From an uncultured Candidatus Saccharibacteria bacterium (GTDB lineage: Bacteria > Patescibacteriota > Andersenbacteria > UBA10190), in NCBI GenBank assembly GCA_964392095.1, contig CAYMOF010000001.1:12401-76400 (forward strand): a stretch of DNA of 64,000 nucleotides. The letters are read 5' to 3'. Each line of letters opens with the position of its first letter. Position 1 is the first letter of the stretch. Positions 11,959 through 63,919 of the stretch are shown here, piece after piece. Below the pieces are notes generated by a model. That model was not told the origin of the DNA and searched no databases. It saw nothing but the letters and a program-made list of their open reading frames with translations. Position numbers and translations under genes: made by a program.

Positions 11959-12998
11959 AAAAAATACTGATCAAACACGTAGGCAATATGGGGGATATGG
12001 TTTTCCTAGTCCCGCCAGCTTTAGCCACCCTAAAAAAAGTTTATCCTCACTGCCAAATAACATTTCTTACCGCTTGGGGCTATAAAGACAAACACGGTCG
12101 CTGGGGAAAGCGCTCTCAGGACGGACACTGTATAGCCTTGTCTCTCAATAATCCCCACATCGACCACTTGGCCCACTGGCACGACACCAAAACTTCTCTT
12201 TCAGGCAATATCTGTCAAGAGGAGGGACACAAAATCCCCACCTGGAGTAAAGATTATTATGAAAAAATTAAAAGCTCGTCCGCTTTTGACCTGGTTTATG
12301 AACTGGACTTCGGCATTAGCGCCAATGATAATCCCATAAAGAAAATGTACCAACTGTTAAACCTGCCTGATGAAAATTATTCCGACTATAAGCTGTATTT
12401 CAATCAAAGAGACCTGTCCATAGCTGAAGAAATTATAAAAGAACACCCTTCGCCTCGGATTGTTTTACTTGAATCTCTTTTTGGAAAAACCACTCGTTCT
12501 TGGGACAAACACAAACTTCCCGCTCTTAATCAGGCCATCAAAAAACATTTTGGCGTCAAACCAATTTATTTTGGAAGCCGGTTTTCTCCTTACTATCAAG
12601 GACATCCTCTTACTCTTAACCAAAACATCGCTTTATTAAAATTCTGTCACGTTGCCGTCGGACCTTTGTCCGGCCCTTTACACTTCGCCGCCGCCTGCGG
12701 CTTACCCACCATAACCATACACTGTGATGTCCCTCTGCGTCGTACCGCCCCCGCGTATTTTTTAAATAAATATATAACCAATCCTCAACATCGTCACCGT
12801 ACTATACTAGGACCATCGCCCTGCGTTCACCACCAACTCAAAAATCCTCTTTTTTGCGACAACCTAACTCCTTACGAAGCCAAAAAACAAAACTATAAAA
12901 ACTGGGATAATCCCGGCAACCAGTCAAAAAAATCATGTCTATCTGTAATTACCGTCGATGAAATTATATCTGTTCTTTCTGATATTGTTAGGCCCTGA
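11955..12998 (+). CDS. GT9 family glycosyltransferase (heptosyltransferase-like)
   Basis: N-terminal ILIKHVGNMGDMVFLVPPALATLKKVYPHCQITFLT is the GT9 pattern (GDxx.. P.l..Lk..yP.a.i). 4-nt overlap with the upstream gene. Confidence 0.7.
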   Translation: MKKILIKHVGNMGDMVFLVPPALATLKKVYPHCQITFLTAWGYKDKHGRWGKRSQDGHCIALSLNNPHIDHLAHWHDTKTSLSGNICQEEGHKIPTWSKDYYEKIKSSSAFDLVYELDFGISANDNPIKKMYQLLNLPDENYSDYKLYFNQRDLSIAEEIIKEHPSPRIVLLESLFGKTTRSWDKHKLPALNQAIKKHFGVKPIYFGSRFSPYYQGHPLTLNQNIALLKFCHVAVGPLSGPLHFAAACGLPTITIHCDVPLRRTAPAYFLNKYITNPQHRHRTILGPSPCVHHQLKNPLFCDNLTPYEAKKQNYKNWDNPGNQSKKSCLSVITVDEIISVLSDIVRP

Positions 12999-51613: not shown

Positions 51614-52432
51614 ATGAAATACTACGACCCCAAAAACAAAAGATTATACTTCACCGGCCCGGCGGCTACCTGCTGTTACTGGGACAAACAATGGAAAGAA
51701 GACAATGACATTGTAAAGCTCCTCAAAACCGGCGGCGGCGACAATCTAGTCAGATCAATCACTCCCAAGTTTATCCAGCCCTCCCCTCAAGCCAAAGTAA
51801 TTGACGCCGGCTGCGGCAAAGGACAACACGTTGTCTCTTTAAAAAATCTGGGCTACTCGTCTTATGGGGTTGACTACGCCCCTAAAACCATCTCTCTCAT
51901 AAAAAAAATCAGGCCTGACCTGAAAGTAAGTTGTGCCGACATTACCGACCTCCCTTTTCCTAATGCCTACTTCGACGGTTACTGGTCGCTGGGAGTAATT
52001 GAACATTTCTACTCCGGCTTCGAGCCAGCGGCTAAAGAGATGGCCAGAGTAGTAAAGCCAAACGGCTACCTCTTTCTTGTTTTTCCCCACATGTCCTCCT
52101 TAAGAAAAACAAAATCGGCTTTATCTTTTTATCACACCTTCGACCCTCAAATTCACGACGCTGCCCATTTTTATCAGTTCGCGCTCCACGACAAAGACGT
52201 TATCAAAACCATGAGCCAATACGGCTTTCGCCTGATTTCCAAGAAGAAAAACAACGGACTTAAAGGACTAAAAGATGAATCGGCCTTCCTAAAGCCGCTA
52301 CTTCAACAACTATACGATCACCCTTCCCCGCCTATAAAAGCCACTAAAGTAATACTTTCAAAATTACTAACCCCGCTCACCAGCCACACTGTCGTTCTGG
52401 TTATGAAGAAGCAGGATAATAATTACGCCTAA
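51614..52432 (+). CDS. Class I SAM-dependent methyltransferase
   Basis: KVIDAGCGKGQH (motif I), FDGYWSLGVIEH, NGYLFLVFPH. Confidence 0.75.
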   Translation: MKYYDPKNKRLYFTGPAATCCYWDKQWKEDNDIVKLLKTGGGDNLVRSITPKFIQPSPQAKVIDAGCGKGQHVVSLKNLGYSSYGVDYAPKTISLIKKIRPDLKVSCADITDLPFPNAYFDGYWSLGVIEHFYSGFEPAAKEMARVVKPNGYLFLVFPHMSSLRKTKSALSFYHTFDPQIHDAAHFYQFALHDKDVIKTMSQYGFRLISKKKNNGLKGLKDESAFLKPLLQQLYDHPSPPIKATKVILSKLLTPLTSHTVVLVMKKQDNNYA

Positions 52433-53144
52433 CGTAATCATACAACTTTATATCCAAATCATTTTTCTTCCTTATTGTTTCCAGCTGTCCTTCGGTTAAC
52501 CCTCCCGTCCTAGTACGCGGTCGGTTAGCGTTATATCTTTTCTTTTCGCTATACTGTATCTCCTCGTCCTTAAAACCAAGTTTTTCTTTAACTTCCCGCA
52601 AAAACAAATCATATTTCTCCATTAGTCCCACCACCGCGAAATTATCCAGGTTTTTCTTAGCTTGTTCCAAATCACACTTATAAGGGTAAGACAGCCACTT
52701 AGTCATGTGGTTTGACTGCCGGCATAAAACCCCTCCGCTGTGCATATAATTATCCTCCTCTTCATTAAACCATTGATTAAACGGCATCTTCTCTTTTACT
52801 GCCTCGCTCACTTGATTTCTAGTCATTTTCCTGGCTTTCATAGGCGCGTCAAATAAGTACTTATAATACTCTGACAAAACCCGATCCACCGGCTCCCTTA
52901 ACAACACCACGTATTTACCGCCAGGCACGATTTCATCCTGCGCTTCCGGATTATAGGCCTGGTGAAAAGAATACACGCTGTAAGGCCTCTTGATAACACC
53001 GTCCAGCTCTTGATGATAGCTTCGATAATTATACACTTTCATTCCTCTTCGCCTGGCATACCTAACCAACAAACCATAAAAAGTGCTGCTTCCCACCCGG
53101 ACAAGCCTCACAAAGATAATCCTAGTCTGATTTTCCCTTCCCAT
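52401..53144 (-). CDS. PAPS-dependent sulfotransferase family protein
   Basis: RVGSSTF (5'-phosphosulfate-binding loop analogue of KTGTT) and LLREPVDRVLSEY (3'-phosphate-binding RDP..R..S motif). The 3' end overlaps the convergent MTase by 32 nt. Confidence 0.6.
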   Translation of the reverse strand: MGRENQTRIIFVRLVRVGSSTFYGLLVRYARRRGMKVYNYRSYHQELDGVIKRPYSVYSFHQAYNPEAQDEIVPGGKYVVLLREPVDRVLSEYYKYLFDAPMKARKMTRNQVSEAVKEKMPFNQWFNEEEDNYMHSGGVLCRQSNHMTKWLSYPYKCDLEQAKKNLDNFAVVGLMEKYDLFLREVKEKLGFKDEEIQYSEKKRYNANRPRTRTGGLTEGQLETIRKKNDLDIKLYDYVRRNYYPASS

Positions 53145-53149
53145 AATAA

Positions 53150-53995
53150 TTATTTCTTCTGCCTTAATTCCCTAAGCTTAGATGTTACTAAGAGCAAAGA
53201 TCTAACAATCTTCTCTGTAAACTTACGCGGTCCTTCTATTGGATTCAACTGTCTCTGGCAAGCTACTTTCAACACAAACTCATTGTCAACATTCCTATAT
53301 AAACCCCGCTCGTAACAGCCTCGCCCCCTAGCCTCCATTATCGGCTCTAAACCCTCTTTAATAAACTTGTCTGGCCTCGGCAGAGCCGCCGTCTCCAACA
53401 AAGCTACTCTGTATCCAGCATCAAACAATTCGCTCAAAACCCCCTTCAAAGAGCGCCCCTCGTCATATATTAATGGATGCACTTCCATTAATATATTTAC
53501 TTCATTTGTCCTTTTCAAATAATCCAGGCTTCCCCGCAACACATCCACCTCATAACCTTCTATGTCCATTTTTACAACTATGGGTCCACAAATATCTTGC
53601 TCTTTTATGAAGCTTTCAAGGGTAACATACTCTGTCTTTATTGAATCATCATAAGACTCCGCGGCAATTGCCGTGCTTAAATTCCTTTTCTTTTTATTCA
53701 AATAAAAAAAACCTTTACCGCTCTGGTCAGAAACCGCCTGGGAAAATAAATAAAAATTATCTCGACTGCCCAGAATCCTAGTTATTTTATTTCTGTTATA
53801 ACTGTCCGGCTCCAAAATATAAATCTTAATATCGTCACCATATTTTTTGAACAAGTATCTAGCCTCATAACCATCGCTCGACCCAATTTCTATAACATTC
53901 GTACCAGCTACCACCGCCTCATCCAACATGGCCATAAATATCGGCTCTCTCGGCTCTCTTTTTAAAATCTTAACAAGTTGTCGCGCCTTAATCAT
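53150..53995 (-). CDS. FkbM-family SAM-dependent methyltransferase
   Basis: NVIEIGSSDGYEARYL and VVKMDIEGYEVDVLRGS. Confidence 0.7.
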   Translation of the reverse strand: MIKARQLVKILKREPREPIFMAMLDEAVVAGTNVIEIGSSDGYEARYLFKKYGDDIKIYILEPDSYNRNKITRILGSRDNFYLFSQAVSDQSGKGFFYLNKKKRNLSTAIAAESYDDSIKTEYVTLESFIKEQDICGPIVVKMDIEGYEVDVLRGSLDYLKRTNEVNILMEVHPLIYDEGRSLKGVLSELFDAGYRVALLETAALPRPDKFIKEGLEPIMEARGRGCYERGLYRNVDNEFVLKVACQRQLNPIEGPRKFTEKIVRSLLLVTSKLRELRQKK

Positions 53996-54585
53996 CTAAC
54001 AAATCTTTTTAAAACACTCTTCAGCCACGCCCCCAGTCTCCCCTTGGCTCTGATCCTGTTTTCTAAATACTCGCTCTGATCCGTTTCCATTTTGGGAGTC
54101 TGCCAGTCTCCGTATTGATACTCTAAATACTCTTCCGGCGACGACGGACATTCATACCAGCTCCCCCGAAACAAAATCTTCCCCGTATTATTAAAAAACT
54201 TAATCGGATAACGCCAGTTCCTCCTTTTTCTGAATCTGCTCTTCTCCTCATATCCTAATAAAGAATATTTCGTTCCATACTTATGAACATTAATCTTCAT
54301 GTTGCCCTTATCGATCACTATCGACCCCGGCCTAAAACCTGAATTTCTCAACCCTTCTTTTATTGCCTCGAATTTTTCCTGCATCTGCTCCGCGTACAAA
54401 GCCAGCTCCACATCCCAGTCCCACTTAATAAAATCTTTTTCTCTCACCGCCCCCAACAAAACCCCGTCAATCAACAAAAATTTTACCCCCAAGCCATCCA
54501 ACACCCTTTTTATTTGAACCAAACCTTCATTGCGATTTTCCAACTCCTCTTTAGAAAATATTTTTAGCTTTTTATCCAACTTCAT
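53992..54585 (-). CDS. LicD-family phosphotransferase (phosphocholine/alditol-phosphate transferase family)
   Basis: KFLLIDGVLLGAVREKDFIKWDWDVELAL matches the LicD motif (LLGAVRH.GFIPWDDDIDV). Confidence 0.75.
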   Translation of the reverse strand: MKLDKKLKIFSKEELENRNEGLVQIKRVLDGLGVKFLLIDGVLLGAVREKDFIKWDWDVELALYAEQMQEKFEAIKEGLRNSGFRPGSIVIDKGNMKINVHKYGTKYSLLGYEEKSRFRKRRNWRYPIKFFNNTGKILFRGSWYECPSSPEEYLEYQYGDWQTPKMETDQSEYLENRIRAKGRLGAWLKSVLKRFVR

Positions 54586-55677: not shown

Positions 55678-56456
55678 ATGAGTTTCAAGCTCCAAGTTCT
55701 CGGTTCTGGTATCGCTGCTCCTTTTGATAACCGCATGCCTTCCGGATACCTCGTCATCACCGGCAACACAGAGATCTTGCTCGAATGCAATCCATTCACT
55801 ATCGGAGCCCGCCTATCCGCCATTAACATCACCTCAATCTCTGGAATCCTCGTCACCCACGCCCACAACGACCACTCCGGTGGAGAAGTCGCCTTCCTGG
55901 AAGCCTTCCGCACCAGACACAAAATACTCGGAAAGCCGATTCCCCCCTTTACTTTATGCGGCCCCGCCCCAAACCGTTTCTTCAAGACATACCTTAAAAA
56001 ACAACTTCAGTGGCGCTGGCCGGAATTGCCAGAAGAAGATTGTTTTTGGAAAATCCCATCAGAATTGAATCGCTTCTCGCTGGGTGATGCCTGGATAACC
56101 GCCTTTCCTGTCAACCGCGTCCCCGAAATGCCGGCCGTCGGCTACCATATCCAGTATGGAAATCAGTCCTTAGTCTACTGCGGCGATTTTGGCACCACTC
56201 AATTCCAAAACGTCAACACCCTTGGCCAGTGGATCACCGACGCTGACCTGCTCATCCTCGACTGCGGAGCCCCCACTGAATCCCCAGCCACCTGACCATT
56301 GAGCAGGGCCACAAGATCAAACAGCGGTTCCTCGCCCGCAAACTCCTGGCCACCCACATTCCCGCTCACCGCGTAGGAAATGTCCGCGAGCGCATCGCTG
56401 CCCTCAATGACCCAGATGTCATCCTCGCTGAAGATCTCATGGTGCTTGATATCTAA
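55678..56456 (+). pseudogene. MBL-fold metallo-hydrolase, ~60% GC, interrupted by a frameshift near 56280-56293
   Basis: ILVTHAHNDHSGG (HxHxDH) and CGDFG. The ORF stops at 56295, but the C-terminal remainder (HLTIEQGHKIKQRFLARKLLATHIPAHR...MVLDI*) continues in another frame from 56280 to 56456. The shift maps to C-homopolymers (CCCCC at 56270-56274, CCCC at 56282-56285). Confidence 0.6.
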
Positions 56457-56554: not shown

Positions 56555-57235
56555 TCATTTTCCATTTTCTCTCCTTCCCCACATTCTCTTCACCTTCCCT
56601 AAAATATTCTTCAACACCACATTTCCTCTTTTTCCAGCAAAATGATCCGCGTTATAATACTCCTCATCAATATCGGATCTCTTGGGGGTTTGCCAGTCAC
56701 CATAAACATGCTCCAAGAACTTTTCCGGCGGTGACGGCACTAAAAACTGCCTCCCCTTAAAATCGATTTTCTCTTTTTCGTTGAAAAAACGAGCCGGGTA
56801 CTTATAAGCCGGACGAGTCCTGTACTCACCATCGTCACGCAATGCCCCTAAAGCGATTTTTTGGCCGTATTTAAAAAACGCCATCTTAGGAAACCTATTA
56901 CTTTCAATCAACCGCACCACGAAACCAGCCTCTATCAACCTTTCTTTCAATTCCTTCATCACCCCGACAAACTCCTCCTCCAACATGTCCAAATCAACAT
57001 CATCGTCCCAGGCAATGAAATTATTCTCTCTAATTGCCCCCAGTAAACTTCCCCCCGTTAACCAAAACCTGACGCCGGCAGAACTCAATACGTCGCTGGC
57101 CTCCTGCAAGGCCTTCTCTCTTGCCTGTAAATCAAACGGGTAAGGTTGGACTACTCGGGGTCTTGCTTTTTTCCATCTCCTGCGCGACAGGTTGCTCAAA
57201 CGCCTGATTTCACCTTGTGAAAATTCGTAACTCAT
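56555..57235 (-). CDS. LicD-family phosphotransferase (second paralog)
   Basis: RFWLTGGSLLGAIRENNFIAWDDDVDLDM. Roughly 45% identical by eye to the LicD at 53992. Confidence 0.75.
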   Translation of the reverse strand: MSYEFSQGEIRRLSNLSRRRWKKARPRVVQPYPFDLQAREKALQEASDVLSSAGVRFWLTGGSLLGAIRENNFIAWDDDVDLDMLEEEFVGVMKELKERLIEAGFVVRLIESNRFPKMAFFKYGQKIALGALRDDGEYRTRPAYKYPARFFNEKEKIDFKGRQFLVPSPPEKFLEHVYGDWQTPKRSDIDEEYYNADHFAGKRGNVVLKNILGKVKRMWGRRENGK

Positions 57236-57912
57236 ACCATCTTCACACTATACCTCCACCTGGACTGCATATAAAACTCTAATCGATCAATATCCTCATC
57301 ATAAAATTCAACCTTTCTGCCCAACTCATCCCCGATTTTAATAAAAAATTCTTTATCATAAAACATATGGCTCGGGGTAACCTTTCCCCCGACCTTTTTT
57401 CGGCTCTCCAGCCTATCTAAATATCTTTCCCTCTTCTTTTTCTTACCCGCATCATTCACATCACCGATAATAATTCGTCCGTCCTTTTTGGCCACCCTAA
57501 CCATCTCTTTAACCGCCTGGATCGCGTACTTACAAGACGGAAAATACTGCCAAACGCTCCAAGCGCAAACCACGTCAAAACGATTGTCATCAAAAGGAAT
57601 CTTATTAGCTTCGGCTACTCTAAAATCACCCTCTATGTTTTTCCTGATAATATCAATTGAATCTTTAGCGTAATCAACCCCCGCCAAACTTCCCCACTTT
57701 TCAACCTCCATAAGAATCGCCCCCGCCCCGCAACCTACCTCCAAAACATCATCCCGAGAGCCAATCTCACACAGATCCAAAAAATAGTCGGCCAAATCCT
57801 TCCACTGTTTTCTATTTAGGGTTTCAAAACCATCCATCACGTGAAGAATATCAACATCGCCGCCAGGCCGATATTTTTTGTCCCATATTTTTAACCACTG
57901 TTTATCCCTCAT
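57232..57912 (-). CDS. Class I SAM-dependent methyltransferase
   Basis: VLEVGCGAGAIL (motif I), FDVVCAWSVWQYF, DGRIIIGDV. Confidence 0.7.
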   Translation of the reverse strand: MRDKQWLKIWDKKYRPGGDVDILHVMDGFETLNRKQWKDLADYFLDLCEIGSRDDVLEVGCGAGAILMEVEKWGSLAGVDYAKDSIDIIRKNIEGDFRVAEANKIPFDDNRFDVVCAWSVWQYFPSCKYAIQAVKEMVRVAKKDGRIIIGDVNDAGKKKKRERYLDRLESRKKVGGKVTPSHMFYDKEFFIKIGDELGRKVEFYDEDIDRLEFYMQSRWRYSVKMV

Positions 57913-59714
57913 ATGTCTATCCTGATCCTGCCCTGATCAACAGAAGAATATCCGGCAGAAAAGACGGTTCCCTCTTTCACATAATCCTTAGCCCCTTTTA
58001 CCGCCTGTTCTCTTTCCATTTCCGGTATTTTTTTTGATACTTCCTCACTGTCATCAGCCCACCCCTCCTCGCTAAGCCTGTAAGCCTCGACCCTTTTTAC
58101 ATTATCGCTATTAATCACGCCATTTTTAAACCCAAAGAAAACTATCCACTTGTAATGATCATCATATCCGGCTACTCCCACTGATCCAAGAGTCTTGTAA
58201 TCTACCGTTTCATTAATCCAATAAACACCTCCGTAAAACCTCTCGCTTACCGCCTCGTAGTATCCGGGCAACTCCCAGCCGGCCACTTCCGCCAGTAAAC
58301 CATAAACAGAAGATGTCGCACTAATAAATTTACCAGCTTTTTCTTGCCACCTGCCAGCACCTTCCCAGCCTTCTGAAGTTTTAAACATCATTGGCACCCG
58401 CAAGCGGTCCTCATAAAACTGATAACTATATCTGGTATAAGGCGGTACCGACCGGCCATGATCAGCCAATAACACAATATGACTCTGGGGAAAATACGAC
58501 TCCCCTTCCAACCAGGTCAACAGAGTTTCCAAAAACAAATCCAGCTGTTTCAAAGTCTCCCAATACCCGCTAAAAGCCGCGTTGTTTTTATCTTTTGTGC
58601 CTCTAATACTCGCGTAGGGCGGGTGGGCCCCAGGCAAATGCAAATGAACATAAGTCGGCTCCCGCCTAGCATTAGCTATAAATTGCGTCGCTGTTTTTAG
58701 GGACGGATATTTTCTTATCCGACCACTGCAAACATTTATGTACCTGTGAAAACCACGCGCGTGCCCATATTGAGGCCGCCACTTGGAAAAAAAAGTCAAG
58801 CCTAAGCTTTTGTAACCGTCACCCGAGGCCAATTCAGCCACCGTTTTTATACGAGGAGAAAGTGTCATTAATTTGTCGCTATAATGCCAAGTGTCATAGT
58901 CGTAAATCATATGCCTGGTTAAACCCAGGCCGGTCATCAAACAAGCCGAAGCGCTGCCGGTCACGCTAGCCGAACACACCGCCTTTTTAAAAACAATTGA
59001 ATTTTCGGCCATCTTATTAAACCCCTTCAGCTCCGTCCGGCCCCTTAGGTCACTAGCCGTCACCGCGTCAACAGATAATACCAACAACAGGGGGGGCTTT
59101 TGTCCTTTTTTTTTAAAACAAGCCCTAGTTAAAAAAACTTTTTTATCATTTTTTTTGCCGCTCTTATCTTTAACCTCGACGTCATCAACATAAACAGTTA
59201 AATTTCCCTCTTTACTTACTAATTGATCGGGAATCTCAACCAACAACTCCACCCACCAGTCTTCTTTATCAACATTTCTCGCAAAATCTCTGTCAAAACC
59301 GCACTTAAAACTATATTCTTCCCCCTCTTTGTTGCCGTAACCACTTCCAAAAATCATCCTGCCCTTCACCCGCAAAGACCCAATCTCTCCTACCGGCTTT
59401 CCCGTAAAAACCTCAAAAGACACTTCTCGACCCGCTTTTACCCCCTTCCTCTCATACACTTTCACTGGTCCGCTCTTGCCCCACTTTCTACAAAGCCTGC
59501 CTTCATAACTTTGATAATCACGTGTTTTTTCTTTATGAATCAAAACCACGCTCCTCTCTTTTTCAATCCCAACAACTCGACCGCGCTTGTATCTGCCAAC
59601 CTTCACGGACACCAGATACTTCACTTTCTCCCAGGCTTTCTTAATCTCTTCCCGCCAATTAAGCCTTTCTTCAAATACTAAAATCTGTTGCTTTTTATCG
59701 CTCACACTCCACAA
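57909..59714 (-). CDS. Alkaline-phosphatase-superfamily sulfatase-like protein with ~190-aa N-terminal soluble extension. Lacks the C/S-x-P-x-R FGly motif.
   Basis: LLLVLSVDAVTASDL (metal-binding Asp region), HLHLPGAHPPY, IVLLADHG (sulfatase/LtaS GDHG motif). The nucleophile region is TGSASACLMTG in place of CxPSRxxxLTG. No TM helix. The sense strand carries A9 (top T9 at 59106-59114). Confidence 0.6.
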   Translation of the reverse strand: MWSVSDKKQQILVFEERLNWREEIKKAWEKVKYLVSVKVGRYKRGRVVGIEKERSVVLIHKEKTRDYQSYEGRLCRKWGKSGPVKVYERKGVKAGREVSFEVFTGKPVGEIGSLRVKGRMIFGSGYGNKEGEEYSFKCGFDRDFARNVDKEDWWVELLVEIPDQLVSKEGNLTVYVDDVEVKDKSGKKNDKKVFLTRACFKKKGQKPPLLLVLSVDAVTASDLRGRTELKGFNKMAENSIVFKKAVCSASVTGSASACLMTGLGLTRHMIYDYDTWHYSDKLMTLSPRIKTVAELASGDGYKSLGLTFFSKWRPQYGHARGFHRYINVCSGRIRKYPSLKTATQFIANARREPTYVHLHLPGAHPPYASIRGTKDKNNAAFSGYWETLKQLDLFLETLLTWLEGESYFPQSHIVLLADHGRSVPPYTRYSYQFYEDRLRVPMMFKTSEGWEGAGRWQEKAGKFISATSSVYGLLAEVAGWELPGYYEAVSERFYGGVYWINETVDYKTLGSVGVAGYDDHYKWIVFFGFKNGVINSDNVKRVEAYRLSEEGWADDSEEVSKKIPEMEREQAVKGAKDYVKEGTVFSAGYSSVDQGRIRIDI

Positions 59715-59796: not shown

Positions 59797-62004
59797 TTAA
59801 TAAAACACTCTCTTTCCAGCCCCTACCCTTTTTCTAACCATCTCCTGAATCTCCCTCCGCATAAACCAGTCCGGCAGATCCCTGCCTTCCTGAAAAGCCT
59901 TGCGGGCCTGGGTACCGCTAATCATCTCCACTGTGCCCGCTTCACTCAAACTCACATAAGTTTTCCTTTTAGGATTAAAACCAACCGCCTCAAAGAATAC
60001 CGGCTCAACACCAATATCCCCAACCTTTTCAAATATTTCCTTTGTTTCTCTGGGCTTATAAAAATCTCCTACTCCAGTATGGTCGCGCCCGACAATAAAA
60101 TGGCTACACCCCATATTTTTCCTGCATAAGGCAGTAAATACTGCCTCCCTGGGGCCGGCGTATCTTGAATAAGTGGAAAAGCTTCCTAAAACAGCCCTGC
60201 CTTTAGGATAAGCTCCGTTTTTAATAGCCAGTTCATAGCTTCTCATTATCGGCCCCGTTAACCAGTCACCGCTTTTCTTAGGGCCTATCACCGGGCTCAA
60301 AAATAACCCGCTTGCTCCCGTCCTTTTAAGGGCCGTCAACTGCAAATACTCGTGCGCTCTATGCACCACATTTCTTGTATGAAAACCCACCACTTTACGC
60401 CACCCCTTATGGGTAAATATTTGCCGCGTCTGATGCGGATCCAGCTCATATTTCCGCCAAACAGAATCCCCTTTTTCTATCAATTCCACCTCTCCCGCTA
60501 TAAACATCTCCCCCGATTCCATAAACCTTCTCACTCCCGGATGATCCCGAGACGTTGTCTTAAACCACAGCCTGGCCGCTTCTTCCCGATCACATTCATA
60601 AACTTCGCTAACTTTCAATAAACTATGCTTTTTGCCCTTGCCATCTTTTAGAACAACTCTCATGCCCGGTTTAATTTTTTCAGCTCTTCTTCTATCTACC
60701 TGCAATATAACCGGCATAGTCCAAACGCACCCGTTCAGCAATTTCATATCATATAAAACACTAAACAGCTCGTCTTTAGTCATAAATCCAGAAACCGGTG
60801 AAAATGTGCCTAGAGCGATCTGCTCACAATCCATCAGGTCGGTATCCTCCACTGTCAAGCTCATCAAATCATCTAAATCTTCCTTTGAACCGCTATACAA
60901 ATTTTTCAAAAGTTTTCCCCCGTGAGGCTCCACCAGCATAGACACCGAAGTGGACACTATGAAGCTTTTCGTTTCTCCGACCTCCCTTTCATATTGCTTC
61001 ATTAATCTTATTATCATTTCCGCGCAAGCTACCGGATATCTGCCCACCGCCGTCTCAGCCGCTAACACCAAACCGTCAGCCCCGTCCGCTAAAGTGTTGT
61101 AAATATCATTAACTTCCGCCCTGGTAGGAACAGGCGCTTCCACCATAGATTCCAACAGATTAGTGGCCACGTAAACGCGCCTGTCCAGATTATGACACTC
61201 AGCAATTATTTTTTTCTGCAAACGAGGAAGCAGCTCTATTGAAGCCTCCCGCGACAAATCGCCTCGATCAATCAAGATATCGTTCGCGCTTGCGGCAATC
61301 TGCTTCAAATTTAACAACCCTTCTTCACATTCAATTTTCGCCGTAACCTTAAACCCTTCCCCAACAATTTCTCTCACCTCTTGTATATCTTCAACGCGAT
61401 GAGCAAAAGATAACGCCACGTTGCTTATCCCCAAACCTTTAACCTGCTTCAAAGCCTCTCTGTCTTTATCTGTTAAAGGAGATAACCTTATTTTTCTATC
61501 AACAGAAAGAGCTTTGTTCTGCTCAATTATCCCTTCTTCCAAAACCTTTAAAATCACTTTTTTCTCGTCTTTTACAATAACCCGCAACAAAACTTTTCTA
61601 TAATCAACGGTCACCAGATCCCCAACCCGCAAGCTTCTGCCTACTTCTTCTGGGTAAAAACTGAAATTAGGCCCCGCGGCTATCGCGTTACCCCCACCTT
61701 CTTTTAGATAAACCGTTAACTCCTCCTCCTCTTCCACCCAAATTTTTCTTCCTCCCTGATATCCCGTCCTGGGCTGGGCTCCTTCCGTATCAATACATAT
61801 CGGAACCGCGCTGTGTCTTCTAACCAGCCCCACCAAATTACCTAAATCATAAACATCCGTATGAGACATGTTGATTCTGAACAAATTAACCCCCAGATCC
61901 GTTAAGCTCCTTATTACCTCCGCGTTCATTGACGCCGGTCCCAAGGTGCACCAAACTTCTTTTCCCTTATTAAATTTGGATATTTCTGACATAAACTTCG
62001 TCAA
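59797..62004 (-). CDS. Fusion protein: pyruvate-kinase-like N-terminal domain (A+B domains, catalytic residues conserved) joined to a complete ATP sulfurylase (sulfate adenylyltransferase, Sat type)
   Basis: N-terminal part: TLGPAS..NLFRINMSHTD, IDTEGAQPRTG, KIECEEG, DRGDLS, ATNLLESMVEAPVPTRAEVNDIYNTLADGADGLVLAAETAVGRYP (PK signatures). C-terminal part: PUA-like segment LVEPHGGKLL..., then GFHTRNVVHRAHEYL (QTRNP.HRAHE motif) and IVGRDHTGVGDFY (GRDHAG motif). Confidence 0.75.
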   Translation of the reverse strand: MTKFMSEISKFNKGKEVWCTLGPASMNAEVIRSLTDLGVNLFRINMSHTDVYDLGNLVGLVRRHSAVPICIDTEGAQPRTGYQGGRKIWVEEEEELTVYLKEGGGNAIAAGPNFSFYPEEVGRSLRVGDLVTVDYRKVLLRVIVKDEKKVILKVLEEGIIEQNKALSVDRKIRLSPLTDKDREALKQVKGLGISNVALSFAHRVEDIQEVREIVGEGFKVTAKIECEEGLLNLKQIAASANDILIDRGDLSREASIELLPRLQKKIIAECHNLDRRVYVATNLLESMVEAPVPTRAEVNDIYNTLADGADGLVLAAETAVGRYPVACAEMIIRLMKQYEREVGETKSFIVSTSVSMLVEPHGGKLLKNLYSGSKEDLDDLMSLTVEDTDLMDCEQIALGTFSPVSGFMTKDELFSVLYDMKLLNGCVWTMPVILQVDRRRAEKIKPGMRVVLKDGKGKKHSLLKVSEVYECDREEAARLWFKTTSRDHPGVRRFMESGEMFIAGEVELIEKGDSVWRKYELDPHQTRQIFTHKGWRKVVGFHTRNVVHRAHEYLQLTALKRTGASGLFLSPVIGPKKSGDWLTGPIMRSYELAIKNGAYPKGRAVLGSFSTYSRYAGPREAVFTALCRKNMGCSHFIVGRDHTGVGDFYKPRETKEIFEKVGDIGVEPVFFEAVGFNPKRKTYVSLSEAGTVEMISGTQARKAFQEGRDLPDWFMRREIQEMVRKRVGAGKRVFY

Positions 62005-62069
62005 TTAACTACCTCTGCTTTCTAAGCATACTTTCCATGAAAACCAAATACAAACACTATTAAAACACA

Positions 62070-63860
62070 TTATCCGCCTTGCGCAGCCAGCAATCTCGCG
62101 TAGAGACCTCCTTTTTGTTTCAATTTCTCGTGAGCCCCTTCTTCCGTTATTTGGCCCCTGTCTAACACGACAATTCTGTCCGCGTCGGCTATGGTCGATA
62201 AACGGTGAGCAATAACCACACTCGTCCGCCCCGCCCCCACCCTGTCTAAAGCTTCCTGCACCAAATTCTCCGACTCGCTATCCAAAGCCGAAGTTGCCTC
62301 GTCTAGAATCAATATTTCCGGATTCCGCAAAACCGCCCTGGCAATAGCTATACGCTGTCTCTGTCCGCCCGACAGTCTTATACCCCTATCCCCCAGCATA
62401 GTATTATACCCCCCCTTAAAACTGGTGATAAATTCATGAGCGTTAGCTAATTTTGCCGCTCTTTTTATATCAGCAAACGTCGCTTTCTCATCCGCGAAAC
62501 CTATATTAGCCTTTATCGTGTCGTTAAACATAAACGTATCTTGCGTCACCACCCCAATATGCTCCCGCCAAGACTCGATTCTATAATCTCTCAAGTCCGT
62601 GCCATCAACCACAATCCTTCCCTCCTGCGGATCAAAAAACCTAAGCAGTAATCCAGCCACGGTAGATTTCCCCCCCCCTGAAGGCCCAACAATAGCCACC
62701 TTCTTTCCTTTTCTAACAACAAAAGACACGTTTCTTAAAGCATAATGATCGTCCTCACTATATGTAAAACCAATCTTTTTAAAAACGATCTCTTTTGCTA
62801 AACCGTTATAACTCTTCTCCCCATCCGGCAAATAAACCTTATTGCTTTTATTCAAAAACTCATCCAGTCCCTTAAGAGCCGGCAACACACCGGCTATACT
62901 CGCCCGCCCCTGGTTAATCATGGCTACCGGCACTATTAGCCTGAACAGAATAATCACAAAAGTTAAAAGCGCTTCCATCCACTTGTTAAGATCTCCGGCT
63001 AACAAAAAAGAGGCCACTATTAATATCAAAGCCAGCGACGTTACGCTTGTCATTTCAAACATTGGTAAAACCGATGCGTTGGCCCGCGCCCCCATGTAAG
63101 TGGCGTCAGCATTTTTGTCTATCGCCTTATACACCTCTCTTCTCACTAACTTTTCCCTGTTAAACGCTTTTATCACTCTCATTCCGCCAATAGCCGACAA
63201 TATCAGGTCATTAAGTTTTTTCATAGCTTCGTTCCCCAGTTTATTGGCCATCTCCGCTCTTTTCATTGCCCCCCTTAATGTCAGTGACGACAAAAATACC
63301 AGCACCAGCGAAACTATAGTTAATTGCCAGGATATAACAAACAGCATCATCAAAAGCACCAGTATTGTGAATAATTTCGGTATCATCGGCCCCACCGCAT
63401 TAACCAGAGTGCCCATCCAACTAGTGTAATAGGACGCGATAGTAAACAAATCTGAGCCTCTTTGCTTTTCCAGATAACCGGTGCTTACCTGCAACAACTG
63501 CGTAAAGCAGAATCGCCGAAACCTGCTCACGGTATTAGCCACTAAGCGAGCGGTAACTTTAGCGTTAAAGTAATAAACCGCCCCCTTTAACGTCGTTAAA
63601 ACCAAAAGCAGTACGGCCACCCGGCGGATACGATCCACGGCGCCTACGTCTGCAAACCAGCGCGCGAAAACATTCAGCGCCGCGGGCAGAGCGCTAACTT
63701 CACTGCCGCTCACGCCCTGAAGCAACGGAACCACCAGTGTCATTGTCAGTCCTTCCAACACCGACACCGCGACTCCTGATACCGCTAAACCGGCTACCAG
63801 CCAGGGAAACAATTTATACAGCCTGTATCCTCTTTTTATTAAATCAATATAAACCCGCAT
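62070..63860 (-). CDS. ABC exporter, fused TMD-NBD (MsbA/type I exporter-like)
   Basis: Six-helix TMD, then Walker A GPSGGGKST, signature LSGGQRQRIAIARA, Walker B ILILDEAT. The track ORF starts at TTG 63896. The first ATG is at 63858-63860 (MRVYIDL...). Confidence 0.85.
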   Translation of the reverse strand: MRVYIDLIKRGYRLYKLFPWLVAGLAVSGVAVSVLEGLTMTLVVPLLQGVSGSEVSALPAALNVFARWFADVGAVDRIRRVAVLLLVLTTLKGAVYYFNAKVTARLVANTVSRFRRFCFTQLLQVSTGYLEKQRGSDLFTIASYYTSWMGTLVNAVGPMIPKLFTILVLLMMLFVISWQLTIVSLVLVFLSSLTLRGAMKRAEMANKLGNEAMKKLNDLILSAIGGMRVIKAFNREKLVRREVYKAIDKNADATYMGARANASVLPMFEMTSVTSLALILIVASFLLAGDLNKWMEALLTFVIILFRLIVPVAMINQGRASIAGVLPALKGLDEFLNKSNKVYLPDGEKSYNGLAKEIVFKKIGFTYSEDDHYALRNVSFVVRKGKKVAIVGPSGGGKSTVAGLLLRFFDPQEGRIVVDGTDLRDYRIESWREHIGVVTQDTFMFNDTIKANIGFADEKATFADIKRAAKLANAHEFITSFKGGYNTMLGDRGIRLSGGQRQRIAIARAVLRNPEILILDEATSALDSESENLVQEALDRVGAGRTSVVIAHRLSTIADADRIVVLDRGQITEEGAHEKLKQKGGLYARLLAAQGG

Positions 63861-63879
63861 AGCTAAATGGTACTTTATA

Positions 63880-63919
63880 ACCACCGGCCAACACAAAACT
63901 CCCGAAGGGATCCTTTGGG
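63880..63919 (-). terminator. Weak hairpin followed by a U-tract on the minus strand (possible terminator for an off-window upstream gene, or 5'-leader structure of the ABC gene)
   Basis: Imperfect hairpin at 63901-63919 (CCCGAAGGGATCCTTTGGG). On the minus-strand transcript it is followed by AGUUUUGUGUU. The stem is interrupted by mismatches on that strand. Confidence 0.2.

Follow-up and report, generated by a model that had tools for sequence, protein, structure and literature searches.

A pyruvate kinase-like domain fused to ATP sulfurylase in an envelope-glycan locus: a candidate phosphoenolpyruvate-driven sulfate-activation module

Introduction

ATP sulfurylase (Sat; EC 2.7.7.4) is known in several fused or coupled forms. 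In Sat-CysC of Aquifex aeolicus (PDB 2gks) and in metazoan 3'-phosphoadenosine 5'-phosphosulfate (PAPS) synthase (PDB 1x6v), it is fused with another enzyme of the PAPS pathway that handles nucleotides, a C-terminal adenosine 5'-phosphosulfate (APS) kinase. Stramenopiles have eukaryotic triple fusions of APS kinase, ATP sulfurylase and pyrophosphatase, and the ATP sulfurylase of fungi carries a catalytically inactive, APS-kinase-like allosteric domain at its C-terminus. E. coli and many bacteria use CysDN, a GTPase-coupled heterodimeric ATP sulfurylase whose CysD subunit is of a different family (PAPS-reductase-like ATP pyrophosphatase); its coupling is conformational, via GTP hydrolysis. The gene described here encodes a Sat with another partner, a pyruvate kinase (PK)-like domain that precedes it in the same chain. 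It is found in 64,000 nucleotides of DNA (positions 12,401 to 76,400 of contig CAYMOF010000001.1, assembly GCA_964392095.1; the whole stretch is called the window below) from an uncultured Candidatus Saccharibacteria bacterium (GTDB lineage Bacteria; Patescibacteriota; Andersenbacteria; UBA10190).

Like Sat-CysC and PAPS synthase, the window protein joins Sat to a nucleotide-handling enzyme, but its partner is an N-terminal PK domain in place of a C-terminal APS kinase, and it has His where proteins of that type have the sulfate-binding Gln. The profile for the bifunctional Sat/APS kinase, NF004040, scores 264 on it against a cut-off of 669. As in CysDN, an extra high-energy phosphate would be spent on the uphill activation of sulfate; in contrast to CysDN, the coupling would be chemical and indirect, through recycling of ADP to ATP driven by phosphoenolpyruvate (PEP), with a different fold. 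The stramenopile proteins resemble it in that a 'pulling' accessory enzyme is fused to the enzymes of sulfate activation. Theirs removes pyrophosphate (PPi), whereas that of the window protein would remove ADP and regenerate ATP. The same activities as are proposed here have also been combined in vitro, in an engineered cascade of ATP sulfurylase, APS kinase and PK with PEP. When PK/PEP regeneration of ATP was omitted, ADP accumulated and PAPS was 'practically missing'; the PK removes ADP and so prevents formation of a dead-end APS kinase-ADP-APS complex (PMC9885120). That cascade is a mixture of separate commercial enzymes, whereas here the PK is genetically fused and has diverged into a clade of its own.

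The gene probably encodes a two-enzyme sulfate-activation module of cell-surface glycan sulfation, in which the PK half recycles ADP to ATP with PEP; we hold this reading with moderate confidence. The C-terminal half, an ATP sulfurylase of the assimilatory type, would convert ATP and sulfate to APS and PPi. A separately encoded APS kinase (not in the window; usually the next gene, or fused, in relatives) would then convert APS to PAPS with release of ADP, and the N-terminal PK-like domain, which lacks a C-domain, would use PEP to turn this ADP into ATP with formation of pyruvate. The net reaction would be sulfate + ATP + PEP -> PAPS + PPi + pyruvate. Removal of ADP would prevent the dead-end kinase complex and, together with the resupply of ATP, would exert a thermodynamic pull on the unfavourable sulfurylase step. 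The PAPS would be used by the Sulfotransfer_2 enzyme of the same glycan locus. We infer the PK reaction and its acceptor (ADP, with PEP), the physiological role and any channelling between the two active sites. Regeneration of ATP in cis was one of two roles offered in an initial annotation of this DNA, and the comparative data given below, APS kinase fusions and APS kinase neighbours, fit it.

Architecture of the fused chain

Three Pfam domains are found in the 735-residue chain: PF00224, the PK barrel (residues 16-326, model positions 5-326 of 328, E 2.7e-59), PF14306, PUA_2 (residues 359-510, E 6.4e-42), and PF01747, ATP-sulfurylase (residues 518-725, E 3.7e-67). This is the arrangement that the initial annotation had described, a PK-like domain fused to a complete Sat that replaces the PK C-domain. 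No Pfam match to PK_C, the C-terminal allosteric and tetramerisation domain of PK, occurs in the chain, which continues after residue 343 into a linker and then PUA_2. The APS kinase domain PF01583 has no match in the protein either. A stop codon or frameshift between the halves, which would make them two genes, was looked for as well; none interrupts the open reading frame (ORF), junction DNA included, and the continuous frame is shared by more than 190 independent homologous sequences.

The start codon is likely the TTG at 62004, which has a GAGG ribosome-binding site 7 nt upstream. The public gene call starts at ATG 61992, four codons later, and gives a protein of 731 residues; the NCBI protein collection holds exactly this ATG-start form and not the longer one.

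An AlphaFold2 model made with a 66-sequence family alignment has a mean predicted local distance difference test (pLDDT) value of 89 and a predicted template modelling score (pTM) of 0.79. The linker, at about residues 345-360, is its sole internal stretch of low confidence, and the pTM hints at a defined arrangement of the two halves in the predicted structure. In Foldseek searches the N-terminal half superposes on the A and B domains of PK, with PK chains aligned over ~360 columns. No solved chain in the PDB was found by Foldseek to span both the PK and the Sat halves.

A distinct clade of PK-like domains

Residue conservation was counted over an alignment of 195 non-identical family members. 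The catalytic, metal and K+-site residues of PK (R43, N45, S47, H48, D72, T/S73, R79, K223, E225, D249, T281 and E317) are each present in at least 186 of the 195. They comprise the catalytic Lys (K223), the Mg2+ ligands (E225, D249), the proton-relay Thr (T281), two Arg that bind phosphate (R43, R79) and the Asn, Ser, Asp and Thr of the K+ site (N45, S47, D72, T73). K164 of the B domain is kept in 191; from the motif alignment to the PK structure 7oo1, we take it to correspond to Lys206 of muscle PK, which binds the nucleotide phosphate. Thus the catalytic residues claimed at the outset are all there, invariant or nearly so, and no key PK residue is lost on alignment of the whole family. With the sulfurylase motifs described below, both halves of the window protein look catalytically intact.

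The initial annotation had placed these residues in the familiar PK motifs. The residues stand, but their surroundings differ from those of canonical PK and are invariant in the family. For example, the family has DTEGAQ[IV]R where canonical PK has DT[KQ]GP[EK]IR, and DRGDLSR[EQ] where canonical PK has ARGDLG[IV]E (ARGDLGVE in the canonical PKs of the PDB alignments). In the same way ATNLLESM stands for ATQMLESM, and LAAETA for LSGETA. The invariant clade-specific positions within these motifs are E74, A76, Q77, D246, S251, R252, N282, A315 and A316. A peculiarity of the window protein is P78 (61771-61773), at the variable position of DTEGAQ-x-R, where Ile or Val is found in 192/195 relatives.

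Residues 1-342 were used in an exhaustive phmmer search of 1.84 billion cluster representatives, followed by a motif scan. A DRGDLS-type signature is present in 133 of the top 150 matches, and these show DTEGAQ[IV]R, DRGDLSR, ATNLLESM and LAAETA. Canonical PKs, with ARGDLG and ATQMLESM, are found only as the weakest matches at the bottom of the list. By these signatures the PK half belongs to a distinct clade of PKs without a C-domain, and the window protein has all four of them (with P78 for Ile/Val) in addition to the Sat fusion.

The pyruvate kinase profile TIGR01064 gives the window protein 249.3 bits against a cut-off of 306.4, and every other PK model likewise scores it under its cut-off. 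The closest solved relative of the PK half is 7oo1 (1.9e-50), and its similarity to canonical PKs is about equal to that of canonical PKs among themselves. Canonical pyruvate kinase (EC 2.7.1.40; PykF/PykA, PKM; PF00224 with PK_C; TIGR01064) has the A-barrel, the B domain and the metal, K+-site and catalytic residues in common with it. The window PK half differs in the missing C-domain, the sub-cut-off TIGR01064 score and the motif changes of its clade, and its genomic setting is glycan sulfation rather than glycolysis. Generic PK chemistry is nevertheless plausible for the clade, given the match to 7oo1 and a stand-alone member that sits in a non-sulfur context, between dapB and folC.

Association of the clade with PAPS synthesis

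The PK-like domain is found in several architectures. PK-Sat proteins with intact sulfurylase motifs make up 40 representatives. The motif scan gave three representatives of a PK-Sat-APS kinase form, in one of which (P0205) the three domains were confirmed with Pfam. PK-APS kinase fusions without Sat are also found (P0136, P0236), and a PK-APS kinase fusion has a sulfotransferase nearby. In P0254 an N-terminal Phosphodiest domain (residues 5-382; NPP, nucleotide pyrophosphatase/phosphodiesterase) is fused to PK-Sat, and P0128 is a PK-CBS protein. Short forms of <=380 aa, which are complete stand-alone genes or fragments, account for 37 representatives.

In about 18 of 70 long representatives (P0124, P0125, P0126, P0141, P0143, P0145, P0149, P0155, P0163, P0167, P0178, P0190, P0208, P0219, P0231, P0238, P0243 and P0248) the RN, HxxH and GRD motifs of the sulfurylase are lost while every PK-like signature is kept. 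The Sat half of these proteins looks like a pseudoenzyme. In both degenerate-Sat loci that were examined (L094, L095) an APS kinase adjoins the fusion. The fungal ATP sulfurylase (Penicillium chrysogenum, PDB 1i2d/1m8p) is a precedent for a fused half that loses catalysis and is otherwise kept. There the kinase-like domain is the inactive half, whereas the decayed half of the degenerate relatives is the sulfurylase; in the window protein both active sites are preserved.

Stand-alone PK-like genes are also met with in this setting. At L092, in a glycan cluster, an APS kinase gene follows one of them after 3 bp, and no Sat is present in the 6-8 kb of flanking sequence around it. At L093 the PK-like gene is followed by a TauE gene and then by an APS kinase. 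Complete stand-alone members outside sulfur contexts occur at L088 (P0123) and L087 (P0172), and one stand-alone member overlaps by 4 bp a downstream gene with the NMNAT-like nucleotidyltransferase motif GRFQPFHEGH (HxGH).

The neighbours of the gene point the same way as its fusions. When neighbouring ORFs were clustered de novo across 81 non-redundant genome loci, the families most often found together with the fusion were an APS kinase and a Sulfotransfer_1/3 sulfotransferase. The APS kinase is always on the same strand and is the next gene in 16 loci, and the sulfotransferase adjoins the fusion in 23/26 loci. The neighbouring kinases pass the curated APS-kinase cut-offs (173.3 against 127 for NF004041; 155.4 against 138.7 for TIGR00455).

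Features within 10 kb were counted for loci flanked by 5 kb or more on each side, 48 from genomes and 15 from metagenomes. An APS kinase is present in 21/48 of the former and 3/15 of the latter, a recognisable sulfotransferase in 24/48 and 4/15, and one or the other in 39/48 and 6/15. The corresponding numbers are 17/48 and 8/15 for an ABC exporter and 12/48 and 5/15 for a sulfatase-family gene. In the smaller metagenome set the associations are thus replicated more weakly. The link to sulfation, claimed at first for the window, extends to the family with the 39 well-flanked genome loci that have a sulfotransferase, an APS kinase or both. Taken with the fusions, these counts show the PK-like clade to be repeatedly partnered with the PAPS pathway, and in particular with the step that yields ADP.

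What the PK-like half may do

Several points weigh against ADP recycling as the role of the PK half. ATP sulfurylase makes no ADP, and the substrate must therefore come from an enzyme other than the direct fusion partner. In a well-mixed cytoplasm, a gain from local regeneration of ATP needs proximity or complex formation. An APS kinase is absent within 10 kb in 27/48 genome loci and 12/15 metagenome loci, and there any recycling would need to serve a kinase encoded at a distance; in the window, 62 kb on one side of the fusion are without one. The fixed changes at E74, A76, Q77, D246, S251, R252, N282, A315 and A316 could also mean that the acceptor is other than ADP.

This last point leads to an alternative in which the PK-like domain is catalytic with a shifted specificity, for neither ADP nor the 3'-OH of APS, and has a role beyond simple recycling of ATP. 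Another nucleoside diphosphate (NDP), another intermediate of the PAPS cycle, or a different dependence on monovalent cations would be examples. The DRGDLSR, ATNLLESM and LAAETA motifs, invariant and unlike those of all canonical PKs seen, are in keeping with it, as is the HxGH nucleotidyltransferase, not a kinase, that follows one stand-alone member. In muscle PK numbering, position 117 is Gln and position 114 Glu, where K+-dependent PKs have Glu at 117 and K+-independent ones have Lys. Canonical PKs already accept several NDPs, however, so no change of residues would be required for this, and the strongest and most repeated association of the clade is with APS kinase, whose product is ADP. 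We consider a shifted specificity unlikely.

A bolder form of the same idea, which we regard as speculative and no likelier, is that the clade is not an ordinary ADP kinase at all, and that the remodelled PK site and the His-for-Gln Sat together carry out PEP-driven sulfate activation by new chemistry. At loci such as that of the window, with no APS kinase in view, sulfate, ATP and PEP might be turned into PAPS by the fused chain itself. In another version, the chain might feed APS to the adjacent cytoplasmic sulfatase-like enzyme and so act as an unconventional sulfuryl-transferase.

The PK-like domain might instead be mainly structural or regulatory, as an oligomerisation scaffold or as a sensor of PEP or ADP that controls the sulfurylase. 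The fungal enzyme (PDB 1i2d) is a precedent in this very pathway, and loss of the C-domain removes the normal allostery and tetramer contacts of PK. Such a role is hard to reconcile with catalytic and metal-binding residues that are invariant over ~15 phyla, in stand-alone forms too. Moreover, the decay seen in a subset of the family has affected Sat and spared PK, which argues for PK catalysis as the constrained function. A purely non-catalytic part therefore seems improbable.

The second role put forward in the initial annotation was that of a PEP-dependent APS 3'-kinase, by which one chain would be a PEP-driven PAPS synthase without CysC. In its favour, the window combines the absence of an APS kinase with a sulfotransferase that carries the motif for binding the 3'-phosphate. 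In roughly half of the well-flanked loci no APS kinase lies within 10 kb, and the invariant substitutions, including the new R252 and D246, could reshape the acceptor site. The same clade is, however, fused to bona fide APS kinases, both as PK-APS kinase (P0136, P0236) and as PK-Sat-APS kinase (P0205), and a kinase that passes the curated cut-offs is very often the next gene; two enzymes for one step would be redundant. All residues for NDP phosphorylation (the β-phosphate acceptor and metal sites: R43, R79, K164, K223) are kept, and a clade member occurs in a non-sulfur context. The fusions and the adjacent curated kinases disfavour this role in particular, and we give it little credence.

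That an error of sequencing or assembly, or a recent inactivating event, brought separate pyk and sat genes together can be dismissed as next to impossible, since the frame is unbroken in the window and continuous in the homologues, and the same junction (invariant S355...P360-H-G-G after the variable linker) recurs across independent assemblies, in 195 non-identical sequences. Among these assemblies are the genomes of isolates of Mesorhizobium, Sinorhizobium saheli, Salsipaludibacter and Methyloversatilis.

The ATP sulfurylase half

The Sat half is closest among PDB sequences to 8a8d (8e-80) and 1v47 (5e-71), and it matches Sat-CysC (2gks) at 2.4e-59. Foldseek gives a template modelling (TM) score of 0.91 with a root-mean-square deviation of 1.8 Å to 8a8d, a TM of 0.91 to 1v47, and a match to 2gks as well. 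Two curated sulfate adenylyltransferase profiles score it slightly under their cut-offs, TIGR00339 at 317.0 against 322.95 and NF003166 at 368.6 against 387.

The GRDHxG motif and the PUA-like domain were correctly recognised at the outset. The motif first read as QTRN..HRAHE is in fact F-H542-TRNVVHRAHE, and a His at the position of the sulfate-binding Gln is found in 190/195 family members. R544, N545, H548 and H551 are all there, each with a conservation of 97% or more; S696-G-T-Q-A-R701, the SGT..R motif, is also present and conserved. In solved ATP sulfurylases the Gln makes a hydrogen bond to a sulfate oxygen of APS (PMC3779200), and H542 could still hydrogen-bond sulfate. By these features the Sat half is slightly atypical, with its Gln-to-His change and its scores just below the curated cut-offs.

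A dissimilatory or reverse sulfurylase was considered and rejected: the context is one of glycan biosynthesis with sulfotransferases, and no genes for APS reductase or sulfur oxidation were seen there.

The surrounding glycan locus

The whole window is given over to biosynthesis of envelope glycan. It has many glycosyltransferases of families GT1, GT2 and GT4, Wzx/MurJ-type flippases, a DegT aminotransferase, methyltransferases and two LicD proteins (Table 1). The sulfotransferase, placed 7 kb from the fusion and described as PAPS-dependent when the sequence was first read, is a Sulfotransfer_2 protein. Its motifs RVGSST and REPVDRVLSEY we take to be the PAPS-type 5'-phosphosulfate-binding (5'-PSB) and 3'-phosphate-binding (3'-PB) motifs. 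The latter implies that the window needs PAPS, and the enzyme is the likely consumer of the activated sulfate. The glycan of the locus probably bears methyl and phospho-substituents in addition to sulfate.

No CysC-type APS kinase had been noticed in the window, and the searches agree: there was none by Pfam among 40 ORFs across the window, and an APS-kinase hidden Markov model (HMM) run against the six-frame translation matched only the P-loop of the ABC exporter (E 2e-4). A hidden APS kinase in the window was ruled out on this result.

The ABC exporter gene directly upstream encodes a HepA/MsbA-like protein that scores 502 bits with the HepA family model NF045513 against a cut-off of 725; it is predicted to export glycan or glycolipid. 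The 601-residue protein encoded 83 bp downstream is of the sulfatase/alkaline-phosphatase superfamily and has, judged by eye, no N-terminal hydrophobic segment. It resembles the sulfatase-like proteins encoded beside the fusion elsewhere only marginally (2.5e-10 at best, to L079), and solved sulfatases likewise (E 1e-3); the sulfatase-like proteins of the window, L006, L007, L091 and P0254 are all far under the curated sulfatase cut-offs. Sulfatase-family genes stand beside the fusion in 14/81 genome loci and 7/80 metagenome loci. The 601-residue protein is a probable functional partner of the fusion, and its part could be removal of PPi or of 3'-phosphoadenosine 5'-phosphate (PAP), or a transfer reaction.

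Other neighbours recur in the family. Cluster c27 is a 515-residue protein with the Walker-A motif GADATGKST, without a Pfam or PDB sequence match, found in nine mostly Chloroflexota loci (L018, L019, L024, L026, L028, L039, L053, L076 and L083). None of the nine has an APS kinase within 10 kb, and this P-loop protein could serve as an alternative kinase. In several loci PHP- and HD-type phosphoesterases lie beside the fusion; they are candidates for removal of PAP, the by-product of sulfotransfer. The fusion, or the APS kinase, is often followed immediately by a gene for a TauE/SafE-family membrane protein or for the Na_H_Exchanger membrane protein of cluster c11, found in 16 loci. Both families may provide dedicated uptake of an anion, sulfate.

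The composition of the window is also unusual. The GC skew of the + strand is ~-0.32 across its whole length, whatever the gene orientation; at third codon positions, genes of the + strand have a skew of -0.51, and genes of the - strand one of +0.45 when read on their coding strand. This asymmetry between strands far exceeds the usual replication-strand skew.

Table 1. Coordinates of the fusion gene, its parts and its neighbours in the window, and of selected genes at other loci
Feature	Location	Position	Strand	Basis or remark
PK-like + PUA-like + ATP sulfurylase ORF, 735 aa, stop codon included	window	59797..62004	-	ORF listing, Pfam, AlphaFold2
GAGG ribosome-binding site, 7 nt upstream of TTG 62004	window	62012..62015	-	sequence read directly
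PK-like A domain (TIM barrel) with inserted B domain, residues 16-343	window	60976..61959	-	PF00224, 7oo1, fold search
PK B (lid) domain, ~residues 80-170, with N163-K164-A165	window	61495..61767	-	AlphaFold2 beta-strands 79-168
K223-I-E225, catalytic Lys and Mg2+-ligand Glu of KIE motif	window	61330..61338	-	195/195 members
D246-R-G-D249-L-S251-R252, Mg2+-ligand Asp in DRGDLSR motif	window	61249..61269	-	canonical PK: ARGDLG[IV]
Inter-domain linker, residues 344-358, variable columns	window	60931..60975	-	pLDDT 54-71, <50 at 345-347
PUA-like N-terminal domain of ATP sulfurylase, residues 359-510	window	60475..60930	-	PF14306
ATP sulfurylase catalytic domain, residues 518-725	window	59830..60453	-	PF01747, 8a8d, 1v47, Foldseek
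F541-H542-T-R-N-V-V-H548-R-A-H551-E552, RNP loop and HxxH	window	60349..60384	-	His for sulfate-binding Gln of QXRNXXHXXH
G639-R-D-H642-T-G, GRD loop	window	60073..60090	-	G 189, R 189, D 184, H 192 of 195
HepA/MsbA-like ABC exporter, 608 aa	window	62070..63896	-	Pfam ABC_membrane, ABC_tran; directly upstream
Sulfatase/alkaline-phosphatase superfamily, 601 aa	window	57909..59714	-	Pfam Sulfatase 1.1e-16, Phosphodiest 2e-8; 83 bp downstream
Sulfotransfer_2 sulfotransferase	window	52401..53144	-	PF03567, 6.2e-9; ~7 kb from fusion
LicD family (phosphocholine/phospho-alcohol transferase-like)	window	53992-54585, 56555-57235		between fusion and sulfotransferase
Methyltransferases	window	51614-52432, 53150-53995, 57232-57912
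Metallo-beta-lactamase fold protein	window	55678-56295
Stand-alone PK-like gene (P0123)	L088	832-1908		outside sulfur context
Stand-alone PK-like gene (P0172)	L087	232-1263		outside sulfur context
Sulfatase-family neighbour	L006	14161-15936
Sulfatase-family neighbour	L007	12216-13835
Sulfatase-family neighbour	L091	5602-6876
c27 P-loop protein (example)	L026	14390-15937
PHP phosphoesterase	L091	10911-11756
PHP phosphoesterase	L004	1-478		weak
HD phosphoesterase	L001	13903-14514		HD_4
TauE/SafE-family protein	L001	13159-13890
TauE/SafE-family protein	L093	2313-2996
Na_H_Exchanger protein, c11 (example)	L068	12773-14140

Distribution and significance

All of the best 120 protein-database matches to the window protein (49-54% identity) have PK, PUA_2 and ATP-sulfurylase domains. 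A scan with one genome per species found the fusion at 80 loci in ~15 bacterial phyla and candidate phyla: Alpha-, Beta- and Gammaproteobacteria, Actinomycetota, Chloroflexota, Planctomycetota, Verrucomicrobiota, Omnitrophota, Elusimicrobiota, Gemmatimonadota, Acidobacteriota, Bacteroidota, Calditrichota, Bdellovibrionota and KSB1. Isolates that have it include Mesorhizobium, Sinorhizobium saheli, Pseudaminobacter, Salsipaludibacter and Methyloversatilis, and a metagenome scan gave 80 further loci. The rarity implied when the architecture was first met with is thus not borne out. The window protein itself is an outlier, the most divergent family member found; no relative of more than 54% identity is present in the protein database, the species genomes or the metagenomes.

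The possibility had been raised that the fusion is widespread and already characterised as an ordinary paralog. It is widespread; no description of it was found in the full-text literature on PK with ATP sulfurylase, APS kinase, PAPS or sulfotransferase, in which PK appears beside ATP sulfurylase as a coupled-assay reagent. Source annotations of the genes read 'pyruvate kinase' or 'ATP sulfurylase' and nothing more. The fusion is therefore widespread but apparently unstudied and mis-annotated.

If the PK half does recycle ADP for PAPS synthesis, the clade would stand as a new, widespread group of pyruvate kinases that lack the C-domain and serve outside glycolysis, and hundreds of database entries now called 'pyruvate kinase' or 'ATP sulfurylase' would be relabelled. 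The fusion could also be used as a genomic marker of bacterial glycan-sulfation loci, and the proteins as compact natural enzymes for production of PAPS. Many bacteria would then have mended two weaknesses of PAPS synthesis, the unfavourable equilibrium of the sulfurylase and the trapping of APS kinase by ADP and APS, with the same solution that biocatalysis groups reached by mixing separate enzymes.

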